A stretch of 64,000 bases of DNA from Escherichia phage vB_EcoM-G28: the sequence record NC_054916.1, one strand, 5' to 3'. Within the stretch, counting starts at the first letter, position 1. Each line of letters starts with the position of its first letter. Below are positions 4,334-56,480 of the stretch, piece by piece. The notes beneath the pieces are model-generated. The model saw nothing but the letters and a program-made list of their open reading frames with translations. It was not told where the DNA came from and did no database searches. Both the position numbers and the translations under genes were made by a program.

Positions 4334-4606
4334 TTATTTAAAACGGATAGTCGAATCCTTGAAGAATAGACCAGAACATACTGTTCCTTCTACTTTCTGC
4401 CCGGTAGGTCCAATAGCACGAAATCCAGTATGTTGGAAATCATTTTCAGAGCAACCGAACCAATTATATCCAGTGATTTCAATATTAGTAAAACCGCTTG
4501 AAGACAAAACTTTGGTTGCATTATCAGCATCAGTACATCCTACTAAAGATACTGCTAATACTAATGCCGCGATAGAACGATTAACATATTTCATAATTTC
4601 ACTCAA
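4334..4606 (-). CDS. hypothetical lipoprotein-like protein
   Basis: 90-aa ORF; N-terminal hydrophobic segment ending LVGC (lipobox-like). Confidence 0.5.
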   Translation of the reverse strand: MSEIMKYVNRSIAALVLAVSLVGCTDADNATKVLSSSGFTNIEITGYNWFGCSENDFQHTGFRAIGPTGQKVEGTVCSGLFFKDSTIRFK

Positions 4607-4970
4607 ATTTAATGGCTTGAAGGAGACTAATAATTCTCAAGCGACTTCTTTCATCTTTAACTGTAAAAGAAAGAGGGTCGCCAGATTTCATAGTGATAGT
4701 GCATTCAAAATCAAAATCTTCAGGAACTTCTTCGAAGAAGTCAAATTCTTCATCATAAATTAGAACATTACTCTGAAAACTGTGAAGAATTTTTCCATCA
4801 TTTCCAGATGCTGTACTAATCATTGTAACATTATGGCCTTTCATATCTTCAACGATAAATTCGCTTGTAGATATTACGGCATTAATAGAACCATTCCTAT
4901 AAATAGAAGAAAGTAGATATTTCTTTTCTTCACCTTCGCGAACACGATATTTCTTACCAATTTTAAACAT
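4599..4970 (-). CDS. hypothetical protein
   Basis: 123-aa ORF, ATG at 4968-4970. Confidence 0.45.
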   Translation of the reverse strand: MFKIGKKYRVREGEEKKYLLSSIYRNGSINAVISTSEFIVEDMKGHNVTMISTASGNDGKILHSFQSNVLIYDEEFDFFEEVPEDFDFECTITMKSGDPLSFTVKDERSRLRIISLLQAIKFE

Positions 4971-15185: not shown

Positions 15186-15267
15186 GTAATTCTCCTTTTA
15201 TTTAAATTACATGATTATTTATAATCATTCTCGCGGCTTTTAAGTCGTCTTTTAAATAAACGAGCTA

Positions 15268-15786
15268 TTAATAACCTCGGTCTTGACGAGCGAAGTTTTC
15301 AGCATTTTTCAGATAATAAAGTTTAAAGATTTCTTCAGCCGTAAGACCGAGACCTTGGAACATGTTCAGAACGAAATGAAGAATATCAATCATTTCAAAT
15401 TTAATTTCCAACTGGTCTTGTGGAGACAAATCAGTAATTAGAGTTTCGCGGCGTTCACCATGTTGAGCTTTCCAAGGCTTCCATACAGCAGATGCATCTT
15501 TTTCGCCATTGCTCATACCGCCAAGAGATGTCAGAAGTTCACGGAATTCATCGTCAATATAATCTTTCTGATTACGTAGCCAATCAACAACTTCACCAGC
15601 AGTAGCCAAATCATCAGGATGACGGTTATATTCAGGTTTATCTTTAGCTAAACGAACCTGCAGAGATTTCTGCATATCAAGCATAACTTGCAGCGGGTCT
15701 TTTTCATCACCGAGAATATCCCAGTATTCGTTTTGAGCTTTATCAGCGCCTTCAATCAGTTGTGAACATTCATTAAAGTATGCCAT
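15268..15786 (-). CDS. 56: dCTPase/dUTPase (MazG-like NTP pyrophosphatase), gene 56
   Basis: 172 aa from ATG at 15784-15786 (AAGGA RBS); acidic helix motifs of MazG family; position between soc and dam. Confidence 0.7.
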   Translation of the reverse strand: MAYFNECSQLIEGADKAQNEYWDILGDEKDPLQVMLDMQKSLQVRLAKDKPEYNRHPDDLATAGEVVDWLRNQKDYIDDEFRELLTSLGGMSNGEKDASAVWKPWKAQHGERRETLITDLSPQDQLEIKFEMIDILHFVLNMFQGLGLTAEEIFKLYYLKNAENFARQDRGY

Positions 15787-23491: not shown

Positions 23492-24334
23492 TTAATCAAC
23501 CGCTATTGGATGAATAGCATTAAACTTATGAAACGCTTCTGATTTTTCTTTGCGCGAAACACACATGCGAAGAACCTTTAATGGCTCGTCTTCTTCACCT
23601 AATGATTTTCGTTTTTCAATATTAGAAGTTTTCCAACGAGCTTGCTCTGGAAACTCTCTATTGATTTGCTCAAGAGCTCTATTATGCTTAGAATTACTAC
23701 GAATTGAGCTGCATCCACCGGGAGCCTGTGCTTTTCCAGATACAACCAGATATTTGAACAAGGCCAAATGCGGATAACCTTGATTAATTAAATTGAGAAA
23801 TGCATACATATCTTCGCATAAATCAATTTTTCCATACCCAATTTGTTCTGTTGTAAGTTTTCCAAGGTCATACCATGTATTCGTGAATCCATATGAATTT
23901 TCACGATAATTACCCCAAGATGAAGTAATTTTAAAAATTGGTAGACGAGCATGGCCATGATAATACCCGCAATCCATGGCATCCTCAACATATTGAATCA
24001 ATTCATAGAACTGTTCACGAGTCAATTGATTGACTTTATCTACACAACGACGGTCATCTCTTTTTCGCATTGAACTCATACGAATAGTAGTATCATCGTC
24101 AATCATCCAGATTCGTTGACCTGCATACATATCAGTAATTGCTTTACGAGTACCGGCAATTCCGTTTACATCATCAGGAATAGTTATAATTTTAGCTCTA
24201 GACCCATAGGCATCATAATAAGCTTTTTCTTCATGTTCACGTACTACGATATGAGGTTCATAATCAGTTGGAAACATATCAAGGGCAGAAACTGCCCCTG
24301 CACGTTGATAGCTCGGAATTACGAATTGAATCAT
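23492..24334 (-). CDS. putative glycosyltransferase (DxD-type) at the bgt locus; candidate HMC-DNA glucosyl-modifying enzyme
   Basis: 280-aa ORF; RIWMIDDDTTI (hydrophobic strand + DDD); lies between uvsX and gene 42. Confidence 0.45.
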   Translation of the reverse strand: MIQFVIPSYQRAGAVSALDMFPTDYEPHIVVREHEEKAYYDAYGSRAKIITIPDDVNGIAGTRKAITDMYAGQRIWMIDDDTTIRMSSMRKRDDRRCVDKVNQLTREQFYELIQYVEDAMDCGYYHGHARLPIFKITSSWGNYRENSYGFTNTWYDLGKLTTEQIGYGKIDLCEDMYAFLNLINQGYPHLALFKYLVVSGKAQAPGGCSSIRSNSKHNRALEQINREFPEQARWKTSNIEKRKSLGEEDEPLKVLRMCVSRKEKSEAFHKFNAIHPIAVD

Positions 24335-24972
24335 TTAAGTGCCTTGCATTTGTCAAAATGGTATCTTGTCATATTTGGCCCACGTCCTTTTAGTCCGCAA
24401 TGCGGACATATTTTTTCTATCAAATTATGAGGTTTTCCTTTACGATTTTTAGACATCGTTTCTTTAATTATTTTAGCTTTTTCTGCGCCAAAAATTTCTT
24501 CATAAGTTTTACCAGAATTTTCCTTTGCTCGATTTATAATTCCATATGCCTGCTCATTTTTACCATACATTGGATTACCTTCGCCTTTCATTCTTTTAGA
24601 ATGATCAGGACGCTTGATTCCACGAAAGGCATTTCCGCACTTATATCTTTCTTCTGGAGATAGTTTTTTACCGTACATTCCATTTAATTTGCCTGGAAAA
24701 CTTCCTCCCCATGCTTCATTCTTTAAATTATATGAATCCGGACAATTAGCAGCATCTAAACAAGTTAAAATAATTTCTTCAACCTGTCTAAACATTGGTC
24801 CTTCATATAATATTTCTTTATTAAAGGATTTTATTCCATATTTCTTTTTAGCATGTTGCCAAACTACACCCGAACCATCATAATTCGGGTTGTGACCATC
24901 ATGACTTCCTATATACCACTTTTTAGTTTTAGGATGTTTATACTTATAAACATGTGGCACATTTACTTCCAT
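24331..24972 (-). CDS. GIY-YIG homing endonuclease (Seg-like) with NUMOD-like repeats and C-terminal zinc finger
   Basis: 213 aa; VYK-x9-WYIGS N-terminal module; repeated NGMYGK/GNPMYGK; C-terminal CPHCGLKGRGPNMTRYHFDKC. Confidence 0.6.
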   Translation of the reverse strand: MEVNVPHVYKYKHPKTKKWYIGSHDGHNPNYDGSGVVWQHAKKKYGIKSFNKEILYEGPMFRQVEEIILTCLDAANCPDSYNLKNEAWGGSFPGKLNGMYGKKLSPEERYKCGNAFRGIKRPDHSKRMKGEGNPMYGKNEQAYGIINRAKENSGKTYEEIFGAEKAKIIKETMSKNRKGKPHNLIEKICPHCGLKGRGPNMTRYHFDKCKALK

Positions 24973-32540: not shown

Positions 32541-32732
32541 TTAGTCATAATAATCAGTAACAGTCCAAGCTTCATTTCTATTGGACATTATTTTTGTATA
32601 TTCTGCTTTAAATGCATTCCTAAGCATAGATTCAGTAACTATATGCTCTTCATTAGAAAAATTATTTCTCAGAATATATCGTTTTATTTCAGGAAAAGTT
32701 AATAAATGCTGTCCAGTTGAATATTCTGCCAC
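32541..32732 (-). CDS. hypothetical small protein
   Basis: 63-aa ORF, apparent GTG start. Confidence 0.35.
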   Translation of the reverse strand: MAEYSTGQHLLTFPEIKRYILRNNFSNEEHIVTESMLRNAFKAEYTKIMSNRNEAWTVTDYYD

Positions 32733-32742
32733 AGTTCCTCCG

Positions 32743-32750
32743 TATAAATA
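32743..32750 (+). promoter_or_regulatory. late promoter box TATAAATA (gp55-dependent) upstream of plus-strand HNH gene
   Basis: exact TATAAATA 33 nt upstream of ATG at 32784. Confidence 0.5.
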
Positions 32751-32783
32751 TGTTTATCACTCGCTGTATCAAAAGGATATGTT

Positions 32784-33500
32784 ATGAATTATAAACTAAT
32801 TTATGAAAAGTTAATCTCTAATGCTAAATCTCGAAAACTTGATTGCTATACTGAATCTCATCACATTATACCACGCTGTTTAAATGGTAGCGATGATGCT
32901 TCAAACTTAGTAGATTTAACACCAGAAGAGCACTATGTAGCTCATCAACTTTTAGTAAAAATTTATCCTTCTGAACCAAAATTAGTCTATGCTGCTAACA
33001 TGATGACAGTTTCCACGAAATACGCTAAACGCAACAATAAAACTTTCGGTTGGATTCGTCGTAAACTCTGGGAAATAGAAAAGAATAAAGAATTCTCCCA
33101 GGAGACACGAAAGAAAATGTCTGATGCAGTAGCTAATAAAGCAAGACTAACTTGTCCTCATTGCGGTAAATCTGGATTAAGCGGGAATATGAATCGATGG
33201 CATTTTGATAACTGCCCGAATCACCCTAATCCTAAAGTTAGACCACCGATGTCTAAAGAACATAGAAATAATATCTCAAACGGACTTAAAGCAATCGTTC
33301 TTGAAGAAACATCCTGCGAATTCTGCGGAATGATAGGCAAGAAATGCGTTATCGCAGCGCATAGAAATTTCTGCAAGAAAAATCCAAATGGACGCAAGAA
33401 AACTGAAAAGACTGGTACTTGCGTCCATTGTGGTAAAGTTACCACTTTCGGAAATTTATCAAGATGGCATAATGATAACTGTAAATATAAACCTAGCTAA
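32784..33500 (+). CDS. HNH homing endonuclease (Mob-like) with three tandem zinc-finger repeats, plus strand
   Basis: 238 aa; HNH core ESHHIIPRCLNGSDDASNLVDLTPEEHYVAH; three C-x2-C-G...N-x2-R-W-H-x-D-N-C repeats; AAGGA RBS; overlaps gene 46 3' end by 8 nt. Confidence 0.8.
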   Translation: MNYKLIYEKLISNAKSRKLDCYTESHHIIPRCLNGSDDASNLVDLTPEEHYVAHQLLVKIYPSEPKLVYAANMMTVSTKYAKRNNKTFGWIRRKLWEIEKNKEFSQETRKKMSDAVANKARLTCPHCGKSGLSGNMNRWHFDNCPNHPNPKVRPPMSKEHRNNISNGLKAIVLEETSCEFCGMIGKKCVIAAHRNFCKKNPNGRKKTEKTGTCVHCGKVTTFGNLSRWHNDNCKYKPS

Positions 33501-35181
33501 TCTTAGCTAAACTAAATCTACCAACTTTTTCCATCTGAATATGCTGACCATATTCTTGTGGGTCATGGTCTTTATGCGAAATTATGAAGAAGTTGGTATC
33601 CTTCAAACCATCTAAAATTTTAGCTACATTTTTAATACCTTCAGCATCAAATGCACCGTCATACACTTCATCAAGAAATAAACAACTTATTTTAACACCT
33701 GAAACTTTTTCAGCAATATCACGCCAAGTAAATAAAAGAGCAATATCAATTCGTGCTTTTTCACCTTGACTAAATGAAGCATAACTAAAATCTTCACGAC
33801 CACGGGATTTAATTGTCTCATTAAATTCTTCATCTAATGTAAACACATAATCCGCTTCCATTATTTTAAGATAATGGTTAATCTGCTTATTAAATAATGG
33901 AATGTACTTTTTAATAATAGCACCTTTAATACCAGAATCTTTGAGCATATCAGTCAAAATTCCTCTATGGTATTTTTCCATTACTAAATTAGTTTTTGTC
34001 TTAACAATTTTATCAAGTTCTTCTTGAAGCAGTGCTATTTCATCAGCGTGGTCAATAAACTCGGATGATGCTTTTTCTATAGCCGCTTTAACCTTTTTAG
34101 CTTTATCTACCGTCGTGATTAAGGATTGCTTTTTATTACGAATATCATTTGCCAATGACTGCTGAGTCTTAATATTATCTCGGTATTCATCGACAAGAAC
34201 TTTTAAATTATCACGATGTGTTGAAAGCTGTTCAAACGAATGCGTGCATTCAGAAACTTTATCTTTAATTTTAGAAACAACTTTATCACCGGAACTTAAT
34301 TGTGACAAACAGGTTGGACATAATCCACCTTCGTGATACATATTAATGACTTTATTATACGAGTCAATTTTTGATTTAATCAAAACTGCTTCTTGACCGA
34401 TTTTATTAAATGCATCAGTCGGGTCTTCATCTAAAACAATATTAACTAATCTTTCATTAGCTTCTTCTATTTCCGATTTTAGCGTTCTAGCTTCCTTTGC
34501 CAAATCGTCATACATATTCTGTAGACGAGTAAGGTTGTCACCAGTTAATTTTTTCTGGCGTTCAACGTTATCATTATATATTTTAATTTGCTGGATAATA
34601 CTATCTTTTTTAACATCAAGCACTTGGTTTTGTGAATTTAATTCACGTATTAGTGCTTTATTAAGTTTATCCATTTCAGCTAATGTTCCTACTTCGAGCA
34701 GGTCTTCGACAAGCTTTCTTCTTGCAGGAGTGGATAGGCCCATAAAAGGGGTATATCCAGCCGTGCCGAGTACGACGATCTGTTTGAAACTGGCGTATGA
34801 CATTCCGATAAGCTGTTCAAATTCTGCTTGGAAATCTTTACTGCTGGCAGATTCATTAAGACGTGTACCGTTAACGGTGATTTCGAAAACATTTGGTTTT
34901 TGTCCTCTTTTGATATAGTACTTTTTCTCATCATATTCCATCCACAGTTCAACTAAAAGTTCTTTCTTATTTGTGCTGTTTATTAATTGGCCTTTCTTTA
35001 CATCACGAAATGGCTTGCCAAAAAGCCCAAATGTGATGGCTTCTAACATAGTAGACTTACCACCGCCATTTCGTCCAGTAATAAGAGTTTTTTGAGCCTT
35101 ATCTAGTTGAATGTCAACTCCATTTTGACCAACTGACATTATATTTTTATATTTTACTCTATTAAGTTTAAATGATTTCAT
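33493..35181 (-). CDS. 46: recombination/repair nuclease ATPase subunit (SbcC/Rad50-like), gene 46
   Basis: 562-aa ORF; Walker A GRNGGGKST, long coiled-coil middle, Walker B LFLDEVYDG. Confidence 0.9.
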   Translation of the reverse strand: MKSFKLNRVKYKNIMSVGQNGVDIQLDKAQKTLITGRNGGGKSTMLEAITFGLFGKPFRDVKKGQLINSTNKKELLVELWMEYDEKKYYIKRGQKPNVFEITVNGTRLNESASSKDFQAEFEQLIGMSYASFKQIVVLGTAGYTPFMGLSTPARRKLVEDLLEVGTLAEMDKLNKALIRELNSQNQVLDVKKDSIIQQIKIYNDNVERQKKLTGDNLTRLQNMYDDLAKEARTLKSEIEEANERLVNIVLDEDPTDAFNKIGQEAVLIKSKIDSYNKVINMYHEGGLCPTCLSQLSSGDKVVSKIKDKVSECTHSFEQLSTHRDNLKVLVDEYRDNIKTQQSLANDIRNKKQSLITTVDKAKKVKAAIEKASSEFIDHADEIALLQEELDKIVKTKTNLVMEKYHRGILTDMLKDSGIKGAIIKKYIPLFNKQINHYLKIMEADYVFTLDEEFNETIKSRGREDFSYASFSQGEKARIDIALLFTWRDIAEKVSGVKISCLFLDEVYDGAFDAEGIKNVAKILDGLKDTNFFIISHKDHDPQEYGQHIQMEKVGRFSLAKIS

Positions 35182-35196
35182 TTTGTATCCAATTGT

Positions 35197-36051
35197 TCAC
35201 AATGAAGAAAATTCTTTAACTAAAGCCTGTAATGAAGCCTCTATTGGATATCCATTCTTAACTAACATTTTCCTAAACATTACATGTTTAGGACGATTAT
35301 ATGATATCCACAATTCATACAATTTATCTTTATTATCCCAATGATAGCCTTTTCGTCGAGATGCTATATGAGCTTTTCTAATCTCCGGATTTTTCCAACT
35401 AGCAGCTACTGAATTTGATATAGCTATTTTATATTCAGGTTTTGATAAAGCAGCACGAACAGCCTTTTGGTGTTTAATTTTATTTTCTTCGTTATTAAAC
35501 CATTCCCTTGAAGCAATTGAAATTTTTTGTTTTGTTTTAAAATTATTTAATCTTTCTTTGTTATCTTTCCTATTTTTTGCTACTGAAAAATATTTTAATG
35601 CCCTTTCTCTAGCAGCATTTCTATTTTGCGGATTTGAATAATACTGTTGAAGCCTTTTTGATATTGTGTCACTTACATCTTGTTTTATAAAACTATATTC
35701 AGCAGCTATTAAATCAACTTCGGCTAAAGATAAATTTTTATATGTTTTTCCTGACATCATTCTATTTAAAGCATTTAGCATTTTTCCATTTTTACCTTTT
35801 GCTAATAAGAAATGTGCTTTAAAATGATTAAAATGACTTAAATTAACTAAATTCCATGTAGATTTTAAATATTCAGGAAATATTGATTTAGGAAGCACGT
35901 GGTGTGCTTCCGTTTTACCTGGAGTTTTAACAGTTGAATTCATAGAAATAAAATTAATGTAAGACTTGGCGTCTTCTTCACTCAACGCTAATTTTTCAAC
36001 TAATTCCTTTATTAAAAATTCATCATTAATGTCAAGTTTAAAATTCTTCAC
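35197..36051 (-). CDS. HNH homing endonuclease (Mob-like)
   Basis: 284 aa; HNH core EAHHVLPKSIFPEY...NLVNLSHFNHFKAH; GTG start overlapping upstream stop (GTGA); C-terminal region similar to HNH at 55701-56480. Confidence 0.7.
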   Translation of the reverse strand: MKNFKLDINDEFLIKELVEKLALSEEDAKSYINFISMNSTVKTPGKTEAHHVLPKSIFPEYLKSTWNLVNLSHFNHFKAHFLLAKGKNGKMLNALNRMMSGKTYKNLSLAEVDLIAAEYSFIKQDVSDTISKRLQQYYSNPQNRNAARERALKYFSVAKNRKDNKERLNNFKTKQKISIASREWFNNEENKIKHQKAVRAALSKPEYKIAISNSVAASWKNPEIRKAHIASRRKGYHWDNKDKLYELWISYNRPKHVMFRKMLVKNGYPIEASLQALVKEFSSL

Positions 36052-36311
36052 AAAAGATTCCTTTTAATGTATCTTTTAGACCATTCTATCATATCATCAT
36101 AATCTAAAAAGTATTCGTCAAATTCAGCCATGCAAACAACGCCTTGTGCTGTTTTTGATGTAATGTAAATTATTCCAACATATCTAGAATCTTCTTCGAT
36201 ATAATCAATATTTGCTATGAATTCATCATTAATGTCAAATGTCGAAAACTTCACAGTATGCATCCTTAATACAAGATACAGCCATATCTCGTAATGATTT
36301 AGGTGTGTCAT
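36048..36311 (-). CDS. hypothetical protein (46.1 position); true start possibly GTG near 36254
   Basis: 87-aa track ORF; internal GTG-AAG...GAC-ATT-AAT-GAT-GAA-TTC with AAGGA RBS duplicates the start region of the HNH gene. Confidence 0.4.
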   Translation of the reverse strand: MTHLNHYEIWLYLVLRMHTVKFSTFDINDEFIANIDYIEEDSRYVGIIYITSKTAQGVVCMAEFDEYFLDYDDMIEWSKRYIKRNLL

Positions 36312-36498
36312 TATCTAAAATGTTGAAGTTAAAAGATACAGCCCAGTCAGTGCAGACTGTAACCTTTTTAATACAATTATCTTCAACCTCTAACGGTTCA
36401 AACCAATATTCAATAATTTCTTTATGCCCAATATCATCTTTTACTTCGCATTCAAAATGCTGACTCATCATAACATTTTTAAATTCATCAAAAGTCAT
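36235..36498 (-). CDS. hypothetical protein (46.2 position)
   Basis: 87-aa ORF, ATG at 36496-36498, 4-nt overlap with gene 47 stop. Confidence 0.45.
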   Translation of the reverse strand: MTFDEFKNVMMSQHFECEVKDDIGHKEIIEYWFEPLEVEDNCIKKVTVCTDWAVSFNFNILDNDTPKSLRDMAVSCIKDAYCEVFDI

Positions 36499-37514
36499 TG
36501 TGTTGCCTCTACATATAACTGATTTGCATATTGAATAAGTGCTTCACGGTCAGAATCAGTGATGTCTGGAATTGCATTAATGTATTCTTCCATCAATGTC
36601 TGAAGAGATTGAACTTCAACTTCTTCACTATCATCTGACTCGACAGAGTTATCAATCTTTGACACAACTCGTAATGAATGCACAACTTTTTCTAGTTCAG
36701 ATTCGAACTTCGTTAGATTTTTGTCTACTTCAGTTACTATAACACGTACTGATAGATTTGTAAAATCTTTATAGTCAATTTTTCCTTTAAATGGATAATG
36801 AATTCTACGATGCCAGGTAGTGTTGTTTGGAATAAATTCCATTCGTTCTGTTTCTGTATCAAACATCCAGAACCCACGAGGGTCATTCTCGTCACCTGCA
36901 GTTAGTGTCCATGGTGTCCCAATATATCTGACGTTAGCAGCCTCAGAGATAGTATGGAAGTGACCAGACCACACTTCTTTATAAGTCTTAAGGAAATCAG
37001 GTTCAAGACCATGAGATTTCATTCCTTTATAAAAATAAAATCCATTCAGTTCCCAGTGACCAACACAAAAAGAAGCAGAAGAAGTTTTTATGTGCTCGAG
37101 AATTTCACCAGTATTTTCTTCACACATCCAAGGAATTAAATCAATTAAACATCCGTCAAAATCTACTGTAGTAGGCTTATCATACACTTTAACATTAGGA
37201 TATTTAGCCAAAAGCTCAGTAGAAGCATTTGGATGCATTACATTTTTGTAGTGGAGATCGTGATTTCCTACAATAGTATGTAATGTGATTCCAGCGTCAT
37301 CAAGCATTTGAACTATTTCACGGGCAAACTCCATAGTTTTATGTGTAATTGCTTTTCGCACATCAAAAATATCACCATATTGAATCCATACAGTAATTCC
37401 ATTTTTCTTAGAATATTCTATCGCTTGCTTAATTCCATCAATTTGAATACCGCGAATCCACTCATCATCAGCTTTAACGCCTAAATGCCAATCACCCAAG
37501 TTTAGTATTTTCAT
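36495..37514 (-). CDS. 47: recombination/repair nuclease subunit (Mre11/SbcD-like phosphoesterase), gene 47
   Basis: 339-aa ORF; calcineurin-like motifs GDWHLG, GDIFD, GNHD. Confidence 0.9.
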   Translation of the reverse strand: MKILNLGDWHLGVKADDEWIRGIQIDGIKQAIEYSKKNGITVWIQYGDIFDVRKAITHKTMEFAREIVQMLDDAGITLHTIVGNHDLHYKNVMHPNASTELLAKYPNVKVYDKPTTVDFDGCLIDLIPWMCEENTGEILEHIKTSSASFCVGHWELNGFYFYKGMKSHGLEPDFLKTYKEVWSGHFHTISEAANVRYIGTPWTLTAGDENDPRGFWMFDTETERMEFIPNNTTWHRRIHYPFKGKIDYKDFTNLSVRVIVTEVDKNLTKFESELEKVVHSLRVVSKIDNSVESDDSEEVEVQSLQTLMEEYINAIPDITDSDREALIQYANQLYVEATQ

Positions 37515-38115
37515 GGTGTCTTTTCCATCCTAATTTAGCTGCTTTTGAAACCAGTTCTTTAATTTTTCCTTTTGTCCATTCAGGACCAGGAGGTTCATGA
37601 CATAACATTTGCTTAACTCCGTTATTATACCATTTTTTACCTTTATTATGTGATGAAGCTTTAAATTTATTTGACCTTCCTTTTACATAACCTTCTGGAA
37701 TATAAGGCAAAAAGGCAGATTTTCCTGTTAATGGATCATGTGAATGTATATTTCCTTTACAATTATGAGAACCATATAATGGATGATTTTGTCCTTTATT
37801 ATCTCTTCCAAATGAACCTTTTGGAGCAGCATATGACATATTAAAGAATAATGGATTTTTAACTGCATCATGCAATCGTTGATAATATAACTCGCATTTA
37901 ATAGCTTCTTCACGCGTATCAAATTCAGCTAAAATGCATGAATCAAATAAGTGAGGATTATCTGAAAGCTCTTTATTATAAATTTTCTTATACTTTTTAG
38001 ATAAAACTGAACCATGATATCCAGCTAAATGCCTATCTAAAGACGTAGATCCAATATAAAAAGGAGGAAGTTTATCTCCGCTATATATTGTTAAATAAGT
38101 TATATATTTTTTCAT
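37492..38115 (-). CDS. GIY-YIG homing endonuclease (Seg-like)
   Basis: 207 aa; TIY-x8-FYIGST module, REEAIKCELYY; 3' end overlaps gene 47 start by 23 nt. Confidence 0.65.
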   Translation of the reverse strand: MKKYITYLTIYSGDKLPPFYIGSTSLDRHLAGYHGSVLSKKYKKIYNKELSDNPHLFDSCILAEFDTREEAIKCELYYQRLHDAVKNPLFFNMSYAAPKGSFGRDNKGQNHPLYGSHNCKGNIHSHDPLTGKSAFLPYIPEGYVKGRSNKFKASSHNKGKKWYNNGVKQMLCHEPPGPEWTKGKIKELVSKAAKLGWKRHHENTKLG

Positions 38116-38277
38116 ATATCAAGAACCGTCATTGAAATGCAAAATAAAATTATTGAAATAAACCCATCTGGTGTGCTAAAGAACCCAATCCAACATGCTC
38201 TAGTGAATAGATAAAATGCAAGAAAAAGTATCACATATCCAAGAAATATCATTATATCAAACTCCGTATAAAGCTAA

Positions 38278-38291
38278 AGGGCCGAAGCCCT
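38278..38291 (-). terminator. stem-loop terminator immediately downstream of alpha-glucosyltransferase gene
   Basis: AGGGC-CGAA-GCCCT hairpin abutting the stop codon. Confidence 0.5.
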
Positions 38292-39494
38292 TTATTTTGT
38301 AATAATGTCAAACTGTTCTTTAAAGCAGAAGCTTGAATCTTGATGCTGATACAAAAATTCATAAGCTTTTTCGCGTTCGCGGTCATAAAGAGTTCGGTCA
38401 GATGACAGTTCTTTAATACGTTCAAATGTTGATTCCATGTCATTTTCATCAAACCAAATGATACCGCTATCATGCGAGGTCAAAGGAGTATTATCAACAC
38501 GGAATTTTAAATTTTCGCCAGTAGATTTCCAAAATACCGGAATTGTTCCACATGCACCAAGCTCGAGATGAGTATATTCTAAAGAGCGCTGTAGATATTT
38601 TTTATCCAACTTACTCAACTGATAACCAAAACCGGATTTACTCATACGTTCAAGCATTTCGCTATTTACATAACGGTCAAGAATTTGCGTTGGTAAATTA
38701 GGAGCAATTTTAATTTGGTCTACTTGATGAAGACGATAATACTCGTATGGAATTCCTTTTTCTTTAATAGGAATGAACGCTGGAGAACGTTCCAGACCTT
38801 CCATAATAGTACTTAGTCCTGCAGGTTTAAGATGTTTTTCATGAAAATCAAACATCTGATAAAAACCTTTCCATGTAGTCGTACGACCAATCCAACGGTT
38901 GATATTCATGTTAATTTCAGAAACATCTTTCCAGTAGGTTGACCGAACCTTCGCAATATCCATAGGAGGCTGAAAGTTATATACTGTCGGTGCTTCTTCA
39001 ATATCATCAAACAGAGAAACTGTTTCAGGATACCATTCTTTCATCAGAACTTTATTAAAATCACCATTATCAGAATGGCTAAAAATAACATCAGCTCGAC
39101 GAACAGTTTCTTCTAATCCCAAATTTCGGCGTAAAGAAAGAGAAGAATGGTCATGTTGATAAACTACAACACGAACCGAAGGTTTAATGTTATCAATAAT
39201 TTTTTTATAGTTATTAATAGTGTCTTCTTCAACTGAAGTAGCAGGAACTGAATTGATAATTAGAATATCACAATCATTTACCAGCTTAAGTGTTTTATCG
39301 TATTCTTTTGCCAATAAAACCGGAATTGAAAATGATTTATAATCATGCGCGCAATTACGAGTAAATGATTTATCTTTAGCATAAACCAAAGTTACTTCAT
39401 GACCATTCTTAATAAACCAATCACGTTGCTCAAGAGAAAATTTAGTTACACCACAACCTTCAAGACCTCGAGCCATAAAAATACATACTTTCAT
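38292..39494 (-). CDS. agt: alpha-glucosyltransferase (HMC-DNA glucosylation)
   Basis: 400-aa ORF in the position of T4 a-gt between gene 47 and gene 55; size/position. Confidence 0.65.
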   Translation of the reverse strand: MKVCIFMARGLEGCGVTKFSLEQRDWFIKNGHEVTLVYAKDKSFTRNCAHDYKSFSIPVLLAKEYDKTLKLVNDCDILIINSVPATSVEEDTINNYKKIIDNIKPSVRVVVYQHDHSSLSLRRNLGLEETVRRADVIFSHSDNGDFNKVLMKEWYPETVSLFDDIEEAPTVYNFQPPMDIAKVRSTYWKDVSEINMNINRWIGRTTTWKGFYQMFDFHEKHLKPAGLSTIMEGLERSPAFIPIKEKGIPYEYYRLHQVDQIKIAPNLPTQILDRYVNSEMLERMSKSGFGYQLSKLDKKYLQRSLEYTHLELGACGTIPVFWKSTGENLKFRVDNTPLTSHDSGIIWFDENDMESTFERIKELSSDRTLYDREREKAYEFLYQHQDSSFCFKEQFDIITK

Positions 39495-39545
39495 TTAATA
39501 TCCTCTTTGTTTTGGTTTATTTTACCAAAAATTTATAAAGCAATA

Positions 39546-43530: not shown

Positions 43531-44001
43531 TTAATCATGTTTCCACACCCCATCGGTATTTGACCAAAGTCGCTGATTATCTGAACCTCGCCACAGCTTT
43601 TTGGTCGGAAGATTTTTCTCATACTTCCCATCAATAATAACATCAACATATTTAAGCATTTCTAGTTGTTTAATATCTTCAAACTTATATCCTGTCCACA
43701 ACCAAATGCTTTTATTGGGATAAAGATTTTTAATAGTTTGAACCACAGAGTGAATCACGTCTCTGTTATCAGGATAAAGAGGGTCTCCTCCAGTTATAGT
43801 TAATCCTTCTATATAATCATTATTCAAACATTCAATTAATTGCTCTAGTGTTTCACCAGTGAATGGAATGCCATTTCTAGCATTCCATGTTGATTTATTA
43901 TAACACCCTTCACATTTATGCAAACAACCTGTAACGAAAAGAACGACCCTGCAACCAGGGCCATTCACAAAATCGCAAGGATAAAATCTATCATAATTCA
44001 T
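43531..44001 (-). CDS. nrdG: anaerobic ribonucleotide reductase activating enzyme (radical SAM)
   Basis: 156-aa ORF; CLHKCEGCYN (C-x3-C-x2-C) cluster. Confidence 0.9.
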   Translation of the reverse strand: MNYDRFYPCDFVNGPGCRVVLFVTGCLHKCEGCYNKSTWNARNGIPFTGETLEQLIECLNNDYIEGLTITGGDPLYPDNRDVIHSVVQTIKNLYPNKSIWLWTGYKFEDIKQLEMLKYVDVIIDGKYEKNLPTKKLWRGSDNQRLWSNTDGVWKHD

Positions 44002-45815
44002 TGGTGTTTAACCCTATGCATGATTTCTTTATTTTTACCGAGATTAAATCCGCGTTCGTTCGGATTTCCCAAATAACCACATGTTCTTCTTATTGTGTTC
44101 ATCTTTTTAGGATCAGTTTCTCCACAAATAGAACAAACAAATCCGCTTTCAGTAGGAGTCATTTCATGGGTACTTCCGCATGTAAAACATTTATCTACCG
44201 GCATGTTAACACCAAAATAATCTAAATGTTGTGCAGCATAATCCCATACGGCCTCAAGACCCTTTAAGTTATTTTTCATATCAGGAAGTTCAACATAAGA
44301 AATGTGACCACCTGTCGCAATGAAATGATATGGTGCTTCACGAGAAATCTTTTCAAACGGAGTAATATTTTCTTCTACTGAAACATGGAAACTGTTAGTG
44401 TACCAGCCTTTATCTGTAACATCTTTTACGCTTCCATATTTTTCTGTATCGAGTTTACAGAAGCGATAACAAAGGTTTTCAGCAGGAGTCGAATATAAAC
44501 TAAAAGCAAAACCGGTTCTTTGAGTCCACTGCTTAAGATGAGCATTCATTTTAGTTAAAATTTCTTGTCCAATATCACGACCGACAAGAATATTCAATTC
44601 GTGAATACCAATGTATCCTAAAGACACTGAACTTCTACCGTTTTTAAATAACTCAATTATGTCGTCATCAGGTTTAAGACGAACCCCGAATGCACCTTCT
44701 TGGTAAAGAATAGGAGCAACAGTCGCTTTAACTCCTTTTAAGGAACTAATTCTACACATCAAAGCTTCAAAACATAAATCCATTCGTTCATTGAATAATT
44801 CGATAAATTTCTGTTCATTGAACTGTGTTCCAATATAAGAATCTAACGCGATGCGAGGAAGATTTAATGTTACAACACCGAGATTATTACGTCCATCAAG
44901 AATTTCATTACCGGTTGAATCTTTCCACACACTCAAGAAACTACGACAACCCATTGGAGAAACAGGAATAGATGAGCCGGTGATAGCTTTATTGTTCTTA
45001 GCTGAAATAATATCAGGATACATTCTTTTGCTTGCGCACTCTAGAGCAAGCTGTTTAATATCATAGTTCGGATCGTCTTTATAAAGATTAACACCTTCTT
45101 CAACGAACATAACAAGTTTAGGGAAAATAGGAGTTATCCCATCACGACCAAGACCTTTAATACGATTTTTCAGAATTGCTTTCTGAATCATTCGTTCAGT
45201 CCAGTCAGTTCCTGTACCAAATGTAATTGTTACAAAAGGTGTTTGTCCGTTTGAACTAAAGAGAGTATTTACTTCATATTCATAAGCTTGGAATGCATCG
45301 TATACATCTTTTTCTGTTTTAGATTGAGCATAATTCAACGCATCAGCGATTTGCCATTTTTCTGCATCCTCAATATGTTTTGCATAGGTGCGTTTAACAT
45401 AAGGAGAAAGTACTTTATCTACATTCGCAAAAGTCGTTCCGCCGTATTGGTGAGAAGCAACTTGCGCAGTAATTTGTGCCATAATTGCAGTAGCAACTCC
45501 AATTGATTTAGGAGTTTCAATCTGCGCATTACCTAGCTTAAATCCGTTTTCAAGCATTCCTTTTAAATCTACTAAACAGCAATTAGTAAATGGAAGAGCA
45601 GGGGAATAATCAATATCATGGAAATGAATAATTCCGCTTTCATGCGCTTTCATAATAAAAGACGGGACCATATTTTTGGCAATGTGTTTAGACACAATAC
45701 CAGCCATAAGGTCCCGTTGAGTTGGAAAAACACGAGAATCTTTATTAGCATTCTCGTTTAAAAGGTCTTTATTAGTTTTATGAATCAATCCTTCAATTTC
45801 TTTTTCAATTGTCAT
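43998..45815 (-). CDS. nrdD: anaerobic ribonucleoside-triphosphate reductase (glycyl radical enzyme), intron-less
   Basis: 605-aa continuous ORF; C-terminal zinc ribbon CFTCGSTHE...CSICG and glycyl-radical motif RRTCGYLG. Confidence 0.9.
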   Translation of the reverse strand: MTIEKEIEGLIHKTNKDLLNENANKDSRVFPTQRDLMAGIVSKHIAKNMVPSFIMKAHESGIIHFHDIDYSPALPFTNCCLVDLKGMLENGFKLGNAQIETPKSIGVATAIMAQITAQVASHQYGGTTFANVDKVLSPYVKRTYAKHIEDAEKWQIADALNYAQSKTEKDVYDAFQAYEYEVNTLFSSNGQTPFVTITFGTGTDWTERMIQKAILKNRIKGLGRDGITPIFPKLVMFVEEGVNLYKDDPNYDIKQLALECASKRMYPDIISAKNNKAITGSSIPVSPMGCRSFLSVWKDSTGNEILDGRNNLGVVTLNLPRIALDSYIGTQFNEQKFIELFNERMDLCFEALMCRISSLKGVKATVAPILYQEGAFGVRLKPDDDIIELFKNGRSSVSLGYIGIHELNILVGRDIGQEILTKMNAHLKQWTQRTGFAFSLYSTPAENLCYRFCKLDTEKYGSVKDVTDKGWYTNSFHVSVEENITPFEKISREAPYHFIATGGHISYVELPDMKNNLKGLEAVWDYAAQHLDYFGVNMPVDKCFTCGSTHEMTPTESGFVCSICGETDPKKMNTIRRTCGYLGNPNERGFNLGKNKEIMHRVKHQ

Positions 45816-54706: not shown

Positions 54707-55717
54707 TCATTTATAATAACTTCGGTGGTTTTCAAGATAGACCTTCTCAAGGAAGTCATCCCAGAAACCCATGTCCACTTTTTGCTGCATACCGTTCTTA
54801 GAAGCTTCAGTAGATGCTGCTTCTACTTGATCGACCACATCTTCCAAAAACTCTTGAACTGTTTTAAATGGATGCTTACCCAACTTCACGTCGAGAATAA
54901 ATGGAGCATCTTGGAGTGGATAAACCAAGTCACCAGTTTTGTAAATTTCCAATAGTTGGAGTCCACCACGACAAGCATGACTCAGAGCTTTCCAGTCAAT
55001 GCCCTCATTCGCTTCAGCCTTACGAGCGCGTTCGCCGTATTCAGCATCAAGTTTATTCAAAGATTGCTTAAGCTCGATAAGAGAAAGCGTTGTTTGATAT
55101 TTACGACCCAACACAGTGTAGAACGTTTGTGGGCCTGTTTTCTCATGATTATGGAACACCCATTCACAGAATTCGTTTTCTGGAAGACGATGCTTAATAT
55201 CTTCAACTTTAGTACGACGCTGCTTAATGGAACCGTCTTCTTGATAATCAACCCACTGATCAGGGATTTGATTAACTACTTTCAATACATCACGTAATGC
55301 GGCCAAACGAGAACCCTTAACGCCGTATTTAGAAGCTTGCTTGCGAACATATCCTAAATAGGATTTCATGTTAGTCGTATAAAAACGAGAACGATTGTCT
55401 TGAATAAACTTCCATACATCAGGCAAATCAGATTTAACCACTAGTTCAGGCGGAGTGTGAAGCATATCCAATGCTACAGTTTCACCATCTGCTGCTAATT
55501 TAAAGAAATACTTAAGACTGTATAGTTCATGGTCAATATCATCTTTAGTGTTTTTAGATGATGTGTTGTTAGTGTTTTTACTCATATGCTCTTTAACATT
55601 TCCGATAAGAATATCACGAGCAGGAGGAACAAAGATTTCTTTAAAATCTACATCAGATTCTGGAGTAGAAGTTCCATAAAGATGACTACCAAAATAAGAC
55701 TTAACTACAGTTTTCAT
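54707..55717 (-). CDS. Pol-beta-superfamily nucleotidyltransferase-like protein (nrdC.11 position)
   Basis: ~336 aa from ATG at 55715-55717 (track ORF extends to 55753); FGSHLYGTSTPESDVDF (GS-x10-D-x-D) plus downstream VALDML acidic strand. Confidence 0.55.
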   Translation of the reverse strand: MKTVVKSYFGSHLYGTSTPESDVDFKEIFVPPARDILIGNVKEHMSKNTNNTSSKNTKDDIDHELYSLKYFFKLAADGETVALDMLHTPPELVVKSDLPDVWKFIQDNRSRFYTTNMKSYLGYVRKQASKYGVKGSRLAALRDVLKVVNQIPDQWVDYQEDGSIKQRRTKVEDIKHRLPENEFCEWVFHNHEKTGPQTFYTVLGRKYQTTLSLIELKQSLNKLDAEYGERARKAEANEGIDWKALSHACRGGLQLLEIYKTGDLVYPLQDAPFILDVKLGKHPFKTVQEFLEDVVDQVEAASTEASKNGMQQKVDMGFWDDFLEKVYLENHRSYYK

Positions 55718-56480
55718 TATTAGACCTTTCATAATCTTCATTAAATTGTACAATCAATCGATGATAATTAGATTTTGGATATCCTAATTTACTTATATAA
55801 GTTCCGAATGACCCACGTTTAGGTCTATTTAATTTAATCCATAACTTATAAAGTAAGTCATAGTCTTGCCAATGTTTACCAGTTCTTTGTCTAATTTTAG
55901 ATGAATTTGATTGTTTCTTTTTAGTTTCAAAATTATTCAAAGATTTTTTGACTGCAGCAGAGTGTTTTTCTTTAACTCCCGGTCGTTTAAAAGCAGCTTT
56001 CACCCCTTTAGATATTTTTTCTTTAACTTCCGGTTTGTTTTGTGCTTCTAACTGGGATTCTGAAATTTTAGCCCTTATTTCAGGAAGACTTAATGTTATC
56101 GAACGTTTTTCTCTGTATTCATTAGACTTCCACATTTCTTTCATTGTATTAGAATGTATTTTTGAAAATTTTTCTCTAACTAACTGATATCCTCTTGAAG
56201 TTAATTTGAGATTTCTTCCTAAAGAATCTTCTCCAAAATTATAAAATGACCACCATGCATAAATTAATCCAGGCGAATTATAATGAATTTTAGCTAAAAG
56301 CCAATGGGCTATAAAATGCTCTCTAGCTGTTAATAAAACTAGATTATCAGAATCATCATTACCACCAATACAAGATGGAATAATATGATGCTTTTCCGTA
56401 TAAAAATTTAATTTAGATTTATCTAATTTTCTGAGTTTTCCTTTCTTAATTAAATTATTATATACTTTAGTATAATTCAT
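55701..56480 (-). CDS. HNH homing endonuclease (MobD-like by position)
   Basis: 259 aa; HNH core EKHHIIPSCIGGNDDSDNLVLLTAREHFIAH; C-terminal similarity to HNH at 35197-36051. Confidence 0.7.
   Translation of the reverse strand: MNYTKVYNNLIKKGKLRKLDKSKLNFYTEKHHIIPSCIGGNDDSDNLVLLTAREHFIAHWLLAKIHYNSPGLIYAWWSFYNFGEDSLGRNLKLTSRGYQLVREKFSKIHSNTMKEMWKSNEYREKRSITLSLPEIRAKISESQLEAQNKPEVKEKISKGVKAAFKRPGVKEKHSAAVKKSLNNFETKKKQSNSSKIRQRTGKHWQDYDLLYKLWIKLNRPKRGSFGTYISKLGYPKSNYHRLIVQFNEDYERSNNENCS

Follow-up and report, generated by a model that had tools for sequence, protein, structure and literature searches.

Three homing endonuclease genes inserted around genes 46 and 47 of a T4-like phage

Why do three genes for homing endonucleases lie around the recombination-nuclease genes 46 and 47 in Escherichia phage vB_EcoM-G28? 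The DNA studied (NC_054916.1; "the window" is the whole analysed stretch of 64,000 nucleotides (nt)) comes from a Tequatrovirus (T4-like phage) and represents its early-gene arm. The three homing endonuclease genes (HEGs) are designated HEG1, HEG2 and HEG3. They had been located by an earlier note on this DNA, and all its coordinates hold. The comparisons indicate that the three are very probably unrelated, independently acquired, free-standing HEGs targeting genes 46 and 47, with any coupling to the neighbouring genes a by-product of insertion. The proximity to the recombination-nuclease genes would then reflect the choice of conserved targets and not a functional partnership. HEGs of T-even phages typically adjoin conserved genes of DNA metabolism, and genes 46 and 47 are therefore an unsurprising address.

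The gene order on the minus strand, 62, 44, 45, rpbA, 45.2, 46, 46.1, 46.2, 47, 47.1 and a-gt, is the T4 order. A 5.9-kb stretch is 95-99% identical to hundreds of Tequatrovirus records, though coverage by any single record does not exceed 90%. Three insertions relative to T4 were identified with blastn and junction comparison, and all three sites are empty in T4 and in six loci besides T4. Junctions and flanks were compared in an alignment of the locus from 13 Tequatrovirus genomes. The three genes and their cassettes are:

32784..33500, plus strand: HEG1, 238 amino acids, equivalent to RB32ORF054w; Mob-type HNH N-terminal domain and three zinc-ribbon repeats
32727..33512, plus strand: HEG1 cassette, 786 bp in place of the 72-bp 45.2/46 spacer of T4 (blastn against T4, junction view, 13-genome alignment)
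35197..36051, minus strand: HEG2, 284 amino acids, MobD-like HNH, between genes 46 and 46.1; also found in phage T6
35173..36033, minus strand: HEG2 cassette, 861 bp, inside the first codons of gene 46 (blastn against T4, junctions)
37492..38115, minus strand: HEG3, 207 amino acids, GIY-YIG endonuclease; its ATG forms an ATGA junction with the 47.1 stop
37515..38108, minus strand: HEG3 cassette, 594 bp, exactly at the 47.1/47 stop/start junction, with ATGAAAA on both sides

The 46.1 stop and the GTG start of gene 46 overlap in T4 as GTGA; in the window that GTG starts HEG2, which opens with the original gene 46 GTG and its first six codons, V-K-N-F-K-L. Gene 46 restarts 13 nt past the HEG2 stop at a new ATG and begins M-K-S-F-K-L, compared with GTG and V-K-N-F-K-L in T4. 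Both junctions are marked by a 9-nt direct repeat that flanks the cassette:

36034..36042, minus strand: upstream copy of the repeat AAGTTTAAA (sense TTTAAACTT), codons 4-6 of HEG2
35179-35196, minus strand: replacement gene 46 initiation region and start codon, within the HEG2 cassette (junction comparison)
35164..35172, minus strand: downstream copy of the repeat, codons 4-6 of gene 46

HEG3 has been inserted in a similar manner. T4 has an ATGA overlap of the 47.1 stop with the start of gene 47, and in the window its ATG starts HEG3. Gene 47 now begins 600 nt further downstream, with its ribosome-binding region inside the HEG3 coding sequence; no strong structure was obtained when the overlap of the two genes was folded.

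37492..37514, minus strand: HEG3/gene 47 overlap, 23 nt; the last seven HEG3 codons and the stop, out of frame over the gene 47 start

HEG1 runs on the other strand and converges on gene 46, its TAA (33498-33500) overlapping the gene 46 TAG (33493-33495). The small palindrome in which these stops lie is weak and AU-rich, with fold z-scores of -3.2 and -2.7. With the cassette the C-terminus of gp46 reads ...GRFSLAKIS in place of ...GRFTVMV in T4. The start of 45.2 differs as well: in HEG1-positive genomes it is GTG followed by an extra Ala codon (M-A-E-Y...), in T4 it is ATG (M-E-Y...). The gene is unannotated in the RefSeq records of Aplg8 and teqhad and annotated in RB32. The T4 46/45.2 spacer (L001 4245-4316) contains a MotA-box/-10 middle-promoter-like element, TTATGCTTTA-N11-TATAAT, which is deleted by the HEG1 cassette.

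33493..33500, no strand assigned: 8-nt overlap where the stop codons of HEG1 and gene 46 converge, within the palindrome TAGCTAA/TTAGCTA

All three proteins belong to recognised homing-endonuclease families with intact catalytic residues, as judged from sequence and, for HEG3, from fold. The N-terminal 110 or so residues of HEG1 are 44% identical to T4 MobB (E 4e-29); identity is 53% to MobD over 75 amino acids and 37% to MobC, and the homologue in RB32 is annotated as "similar to mobB". The C-terminal half consists of three CxxC...H...C zinc-ribbon repeats. The Pfam HNH score of HEG1 is below threshold (16.9 against 21.4 bits). T4 MobD also falls below the HNH cut-off, and sub-threshold Pfam scores are therefore normal in the Mob subfamily. 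An NCBIfam scan of HEG1 gave only a far sub-threshold match to IscB, in the HNH region. HEG2 is 30% identical to T4 MobD over 243 amino acids (E 8e-16) and has an HH...N...H motif that aligns with MobB and MobC; it matches PHROG 655, "homing endonuclease", at 4.8e-45, the family to which HEG1 also belongs, and a Pfam scan of HEG2 gave no match. By sequence, this motif and the Mob alignments place both HEG1 and HEG2 in the HNH Mob subfamily.

HEG3 falls just short of the Pfam GIY-YIG threshold (21.4 against 22.6 bits). Searching the HEG1, HEG2 and HEG3 proteins against PDB sequences with phmmer gave nothing meaningful, and a fold search was therefore used for HEG3. Its AlphaFold model (predicted local distance difference test, pLDDT, 85.7) has the I-TevI catalytic domain, 1LN0 and 1MK0, as best PDB matches (probability 0.99-1.0, target TM 0.60), followed by UvrC GIY-YIG domains. 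Residues Y7, Y11, G13, Y20-I21-G22, E75 and N92 are invariant in 46 homologues; the conserved Arg of the GIY-YIG family is not invariant in this alignment. On the modelled fold and the invariant motif residues HEG3 is a member of the GIY-YIG superfamily. The earlier assignment of two HNH genes and one GIY-YIG gene is thus borne out, by Mob homology for the former and by fold and invariant residues for the latter. Several RefSeq records (NC_054933, NC_054920, NC_054911 and others) label HEG3 "HNH endonuclease", which is a mislabel.

The distribution of the three genes gives an indication of how they were acquired. Counts were obtained from 50,697 phage records, about 501 of them at the level of Tequatrovirus. 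HEG1 was found in 58, HEG2 in 69 and HEG3 in 64 of these Tequatrovirus records, with 98-100% identity overall: 98.6-99.2% in DNA for HEG1, and 99-100% for both HEG2, which T6 shares, and HEG3. Their presence is sporadic among phages more than 95% identical to each other, and most relatives, including T4, lack all three, so that each gene shows a presence/absence polymorphism with clean empty sites. RB32, T6 and AV122 carry a single HEG each. Genomes with two HEGs represent all three pairings, one in Aplg8 and RB51, another in G2540-3 and PhiZZ23 and the third in teqhad and G2540. The pairs, whose classes were inferred from the coverage classes of the record search with one example verified per class, numbered 10, 7 and 9, where independence predicts 8.0, 8.8 and 7.4. 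About 1.0 triple was expected in the approximately 501 records and none was observed; no genome with all three was found in the 50,697 phage records, nor among 10 contigs encoding an identical HEG3 protein. The three HEGs assort independently and about one triple is expected, and the window is therefore an expected rare triple and not a selected combination. The three genes are already annotated in many public genomes; what is new among the records searched is their combination, which chance would be expected to produce. Petrov et al. 2010 (PMC2993671) list how many mob-like and seg-like HEGs T6, RB32 and RB51 each have.

These numbers bear on the explanation offered in the earlier note, namely that the HEGs cluster at and overlap genes 46 and 47 so that their synthesis is matched to that of the nuclease gp46/47, by which the breaks they introduce are resected. 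HEG2 and HEG3 do run in the direction of the operon and occupy the junctions at which its translation is coupled, gp46/47 have been named as possible exonuclease functions in homing (PMC2988022), and the run from 45 to a-gt contains at least five HEG landing sites across the pangenome, among them that of T4 mobB and one between rpbA and 45 in a Tequatrovirus contig. Independent assortment without enrichment of pairs or triples argues against such a partnership, as does the absence of all three genes from most relatives. The overlap lengths are not conserved: the HEG1 homologue of the Dhakavirus locus L022 is separated from gene 46 by a 5-nt gap, so that there is no overlap, and for the HEG3 homologues the overlap with gene 47 is 14 nt in L024 and 4 nt in L027. 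HEG1, lying on the opposite strand behind a late promoter of its own, is thus uncoupled from the operon. A similar style of insertion is also seen at many unrelated T4 loci, where seg and mob genes are promoter-less cassettes with stop/start overlaps and with signals of the downstream gene embedded in the endonuclease (PMC2988022). This explanation is therefore very unlikely. The comparison of the locus across T-even phages, which had been proposed as a check, confirms the insertions themselves and shows that arrangement and overlap lengths differ among relatives.

Clustering within the window was not significant either. Five HEGs are present in the 64 kb, HEG1-3, a seg-like gene (24331-24972) and mobD (55704-56480), and the probability that three of five HEG midpoints fall within 4.7 kb was about 0.12 by simulation. 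Significant clustering or co-selection of the three HEGs was rejected on this value and on the lack of pair or triple enrichment.

The complement of HEGs differs from that of T4, six of whose seven HEGs in this arm are missing from the window. The T4 segments lacking are the 60.1/mobA segment, segF, mobB, mobC and the nrdD intron with I-TevII, and the corresponding sites are 2782-2847, 15223-15305, 39485-39510, about 43981-44001 and 45277-45280. The retained mobD encodes a protein with 99.6% amino acid identity to that of T4. The seg-like endonuclease gene (24331-24972, minus strand; PHROG 314) is located beside uvsX at the position of T4 segA, and its product is 37-38% identical to the N-termini of T4 SegA and SegB. 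Next to it an open reading frame of 280 amino acids (23492-24334, minus strand) encodes a protein of the TET-associated-glycosyltransferase family where T4 has beta-gt. The rpbA|45 gene of the Tequatrovirus contig mentioned above (L043 10887-11774) encodes a homing endonuclease of 295 amino acids, also of PHROG 655.

Homologues at the same sites in a divergent lineage give a second line of evidence. Dhakavirus phages IME281, MX01 and Bp7 have a HEG1 homologue (64% amino acid identity) at the same junction, and QL01 and IME08 have a HEG3 homologue (61-64%) at the same junction. The distribution is sporadic in Dhakavirus too, JS98 being without a HEG1 homologue. Same-site recurrence in divergent lineages was thus found for HEG1 and HEG3; no HEG2 homologue at 46|46.1 was seen in 28 IMG/VR loci.

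Some HEG3 homologues differ in structure and placement. The one in L027 (5249-6004) has the same GIY-YIG domain and another, longer C-terminal domain, 251 amino acids in all. The gene 47 N-terminus of L027 is more strongly altered, which together with the C-terminal difference suggests swapping of DNA-binding domains. In Dhakavirus L024 (5340-5400, compared with L030 5795-5865) the HEG3 homologue takes the place of gene 47.1 and starts only about 9 nt past the -10 of a MotA-box middle-promoter-like element, so that the mRNA would be nearly leaderless.

The flanks of the insertions carry signatures linked to the presence of the HEGs:

33493..33732, minus strand: hyperdivergent 3' end of gene 46, putative co-conversion tract with the presumed HEG1 target, linked to HEG1
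37497..37506, minus strand: four synonymous substitutions (37497, 37500, 37505 and 37506) in gene 47 codons 3-7, putative cleavage-immunity changes in the HEG3 target

In the last 240 nt or so of gene 46 the mismatches to the window per 60 nt are 0-2 in HEG1-positive loci and 7-23 in HEG1-negative loci of the 13-genome alignment. Identity between the window and T4 is 77% in this tract and 97% in the preceding 400 nt. The same step in identity, 69-70% against 95.5%, is seen at the HEG1-positive locus of Dhakavirus. A single travelling flank segment for both genera was considered and rejected, the gene 46 tracts of Tequatrovirus and Dhakavirus being only 66% identical. The four synonymous substitutions in gene 47 are present in all four HEG3-positive genomes and in none of the nine HEG3-negative genomes, and the HEG3-positive Dhakavirus locus L024 has an independent synonymous recoding of four of the first six gene 47 codons. 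Intronless homing with co-conversion and target immunity yields flank patterns of this kind (PMC2988022). The signal of a co-inherited flank is strong for HEG1 and clear for HEG3.

By analogy with T4 SegF, SegG and MobE, each enzyme would, in a mixed infection, nick or cut the HEG-less allele of the neighbouring conserved gene, and recombinational repair from the HEG-bearing genome would copy the HEG with its adjacent flank into the recipient. HEG2 and HEG3 have usurped the start codon of genes 46 and 47 together with the junction that couples it to the preceding stop, and each brings a substitute initiation region for the displaced gene. From the flanks, the predicted target of HEG1 is within the last 240 nt or so of gene 46; that of HEG2 is probably the 46.1/46 junction with the first codons of gene 46, and that predicted for HEG3 is the 47.1/47 junction with the first 25 nt or so of gene 47.

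Several points weigh against independent acquisition by homing. The flank signature of HEG2 is weak: T4 and L004, which lack HEG2, have nearly the same haplotype as HEG2-positive genomes over 60 nt at the start of gene 46. The associations of single-nucleotide polymorphisms come from 13 related genomes and 6 Dhakavirus loci and are not phylogenetically independent within a genus, and the flank divergence may reflect generic recombination boundaries. Any of the three enzymes could be inactive despite an intact reading frame, and the literature search found no paper characterising HEG1, HEG2 or HEG3.

The orientation of HEG1 raises a separate question, that of its expression. Late promoters of T4 depend on gp55 and consist of a -10 element, a -35 element not being required; late transcription depends on gp55, gp33 and gp45 and starts about 6-7 nt downstream. 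Such an element, exact and at short distance, precedes HEG1, as had been noted earlier:

32743..32750, plus strand: TATAAATA, exact match to the T4 late-promoter box, 33 nt before the HEG1 ATG
32773..32777, plus strand: HEG1 Shine-Dalgarno sequence AAGGA, 6 nt before the ATG (from the sequence)

The motif is depleted in the 64-kb window, with 4 copies compared with 11.1 +/- 3.6 in shuffled sequences. Coordinates transferred from T4 place two of the remaining three copies upstream of late genes, soc and rI.1, at distances of 26-30 nt. The fourth exact copy (4898-4905, plus strand) is within a non-T4 insert (4596-4968) and has no obvious plus-strand gene after it. The box is identical in every HEG1-positive locus of the 13-genome alignment, and box and leader are kept upstream of the 64%-identical HEG1 homologue in Dhakavirus L022. 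Phages without HEG1 have no exact box in the 45.2/46 spacer, where T4 has only TATAAATT. Judged by its rarity, placement and conservation, the box before HEG1 is more than a chance match, and box, leader and reading frame together have the make-up of a self-contained late cassette, with all neighbours on the other strand.

Transcription from this promoter could have consequences for gene 46. A canonical plus-strand terminator was not found between 33500 and about 35890, and late antisense transcription from HEG1 into gene 46 is possible. Taken further, the promoter might mainly serve to shut off gp46 through a late antisense RNA against gene 46, the HEG1 reading frame being incidental. The exactness and rarity of TATAAATA would agree with such a role, as would a read-through region closed only by the weak AU-rich palindrome at the stops. 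It is nevertheless very unlikely: as at soc and rI.1, the promoter precedes by 26-33 nt an ATG that has a good Shine-Dalgarno sequence, it is kept together with the HEG1 reading frame in two genera, and it is the HEG1-negative phages, with TATAAATT alone in the T4 spacer, that lack the exact box. One MotA-box-like match antisense within HEG1 (33268-33293, minus strand) could be due to chance and is not kept in L022.

HEG2 and HEG3 appear to be expressed differently. Motif scans of the window found neither a late-promoter box nor a convincing promoter of their own for these two genes; a scan for sigma-70 promoters was uninformative, with 35 sites compared with 36 expected. Both start on the GTGA and ATGA junctions that T4 uses for 46.1/46 and 47.1/47, and their expression is therefore tied to the 47.1-47-46.2-46.1-46 operon. 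From the arrangement of the genes, the two would be expected to share the transcript of the 47.1-to-46 unit and to depend for translation on coupling to 46.1 and 47.1. To this extent the expression coupling proposed earlier stands, and it is of the kind that insertion generally leaves behind. The overlaps described at the same time, of HEG1 with the gene 46 end and of HEG3 with the start and ribosome-binding region of gene 47, are as reported. Folding of the initiation regions of the three HEGs and of the new starts of genes 46 and 47 revealed no hairpin of the I-TevI/segB type that sequesters the ribosome-binding site (z-scores -0.8 to +1.0). Nor did comparison of the HEG1 promoter region with the 3' end of HEG-less gene 46 reveal an I-TevI-style operator: of the 20-mers, the best matched at 14/20 positions, no better than shuffles.

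The embedded signals allow another view of why the cassettes persist, in which at least one enzyme no longer homes and its cassette is a relic kept by dependence, supplying essential signals for gene 46 or 47 so that clean deletion would be deleterious. The signals in question would be the start codon and ribosome-binding region of either gene and the changed 3' end of gene 46. The ribosome-binding region of gene 47 is inside HEG3, the gene 46 start codon is inside the HEG2 cassette and the HEG1 cassette has removed the T4 spacer with its MotA-box/-10 middle-promoter-like element; embedded signals are considered to favour retention (review, PMC2988022). Opposed to this are three full-length reading frames, 98.5-100% identical over dozens of genomes and with invariant catalytic residues. 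A sporadic distribution, clean empty sites and flank haplotypes common to otherwise mosaic genomes point moreover to recent movement, and such relics are improbable. A related proposal is improbable to a similar degree, that the capture of 46/47 initiation by HEG2 and HEG3 is an addiction-like retention that resets the dosage of gp46 and gp47, with an antisense HEG1 transcript in addition switching off gp46 late. If this were true, triple carriers would have measurably altered kinetics of recombination and DNA degradation. Independent acquisition by homing remains the reading preferred here.

The neighbouring genes of the run are as follows:

32541..32732, minus strand: gene 45.2 (Pfam Gp45_2, 2.6e-35; junction comparison with T4)
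33493..35181, minus strand: gene 46 (Rad50/SbcC-like), 562 amino acids (Pfam, T4 comparison)
36048..36254, minus strand: gene 46.1 (Pfam DUF5487); its stop overlaps the HEG2 start (GTGA)
36235..36498, minus strand: gene 46.2 (Pfam T4_Y03C, 2.6e-43)
36495..37514, minus strand: gene 47 (Mre11/SbcD-like), 339 amino acids; ATG at 37514-37512
38112..38252, minus strand: gene 47.1, 46 amino acids; stop coupled to HEG3 here and to gene 47 in T4

A MotA-box-like element, AGCTTTA-N12-TATAAT, follows the a-gt terminator hairpin (38252-38294, minus strand). Its -10 overlaps the start codon of 47.1, and transcripts from it would start inside 47.1 and be unable to translate that gene.

The locus is of value mainly as a teaching example and for its predictions, the comparative data indicating the probable cut regions of three uncharacterised T-even homing endonucleases. 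It shows how promoter-less cassettes splice into an essential operon and leave the operon unbroken. For annotators of T4-like therapeutic phages it is of use that HEG3 is widely mislabelled and that 45.2 has been dropped in some HEG1-bearing records. The enzymes might help in the search for new sequence-specific nucleases; no new kind of system is revealed.

The known systems of T4 offer a likeness for each of the three genes. The late promoter immediately upstream of the HEG1 reading frame recalls the intron HEGs (PMC2988022), which differ in having a hairpin over the ribosome-binding site of a type not found in HEG1. HEG1 is antisense to its neighbours, as is segD in T4 (PMC2988022), but segD has no recognisable promoter of its own and HEG1 has an exact one. 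With T4 MobB, MobC and MobD both HEG1 and HEG2 share homology, the HH...N...H motif and a free-standing position at conserved early-gene junctions. The sites are different, a-gt|a-gt.2, nrdG|nrdD and nrdC.11|mobD.1 for the T4 genes, 45.2|46 for HEG1 and 46|46.1 for HEG2, and HEG1 is unlike the T4 Mob proteins in its zinc-ribbon C-terminal half, opposite strand and own late promoter.

HEG3 resembles T4 SegF and SegG in having a GIY-YIG catalytic domain and, after it, a separate domain at the C-terminus, and in lying directly beside a conserved gene. The HEG-linked flank polymorphisms of the locus are likewise consistent with the co-conversion and target immunity described for SegF and SegG (mechanism: PMC2988022). 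Unlike these, HEG3 overlaps the start of the downstream gene, and pairwise comparison with T4 SegA and I-TevII gave no significant match (E 0.19 or worse). The closest parallel to the way HEG2 and HEG3 are seated is mobE of T4 and Aeh1. The mobE gene has a stop/start overlap with nrdA, and translational coupling is thought to limit synthesis of the endonuclease (PMC2988022). HEG2 (GTGA with 46.1) and HEG3 (ATGA with 47.1) are promoter-less in the same way and start on the stop of the upstream gene. The difference from mobE is that they took over the coupling junction of the downstream gene they displaced (46 or 47), and HEG2 even retains six codons of gene 46.

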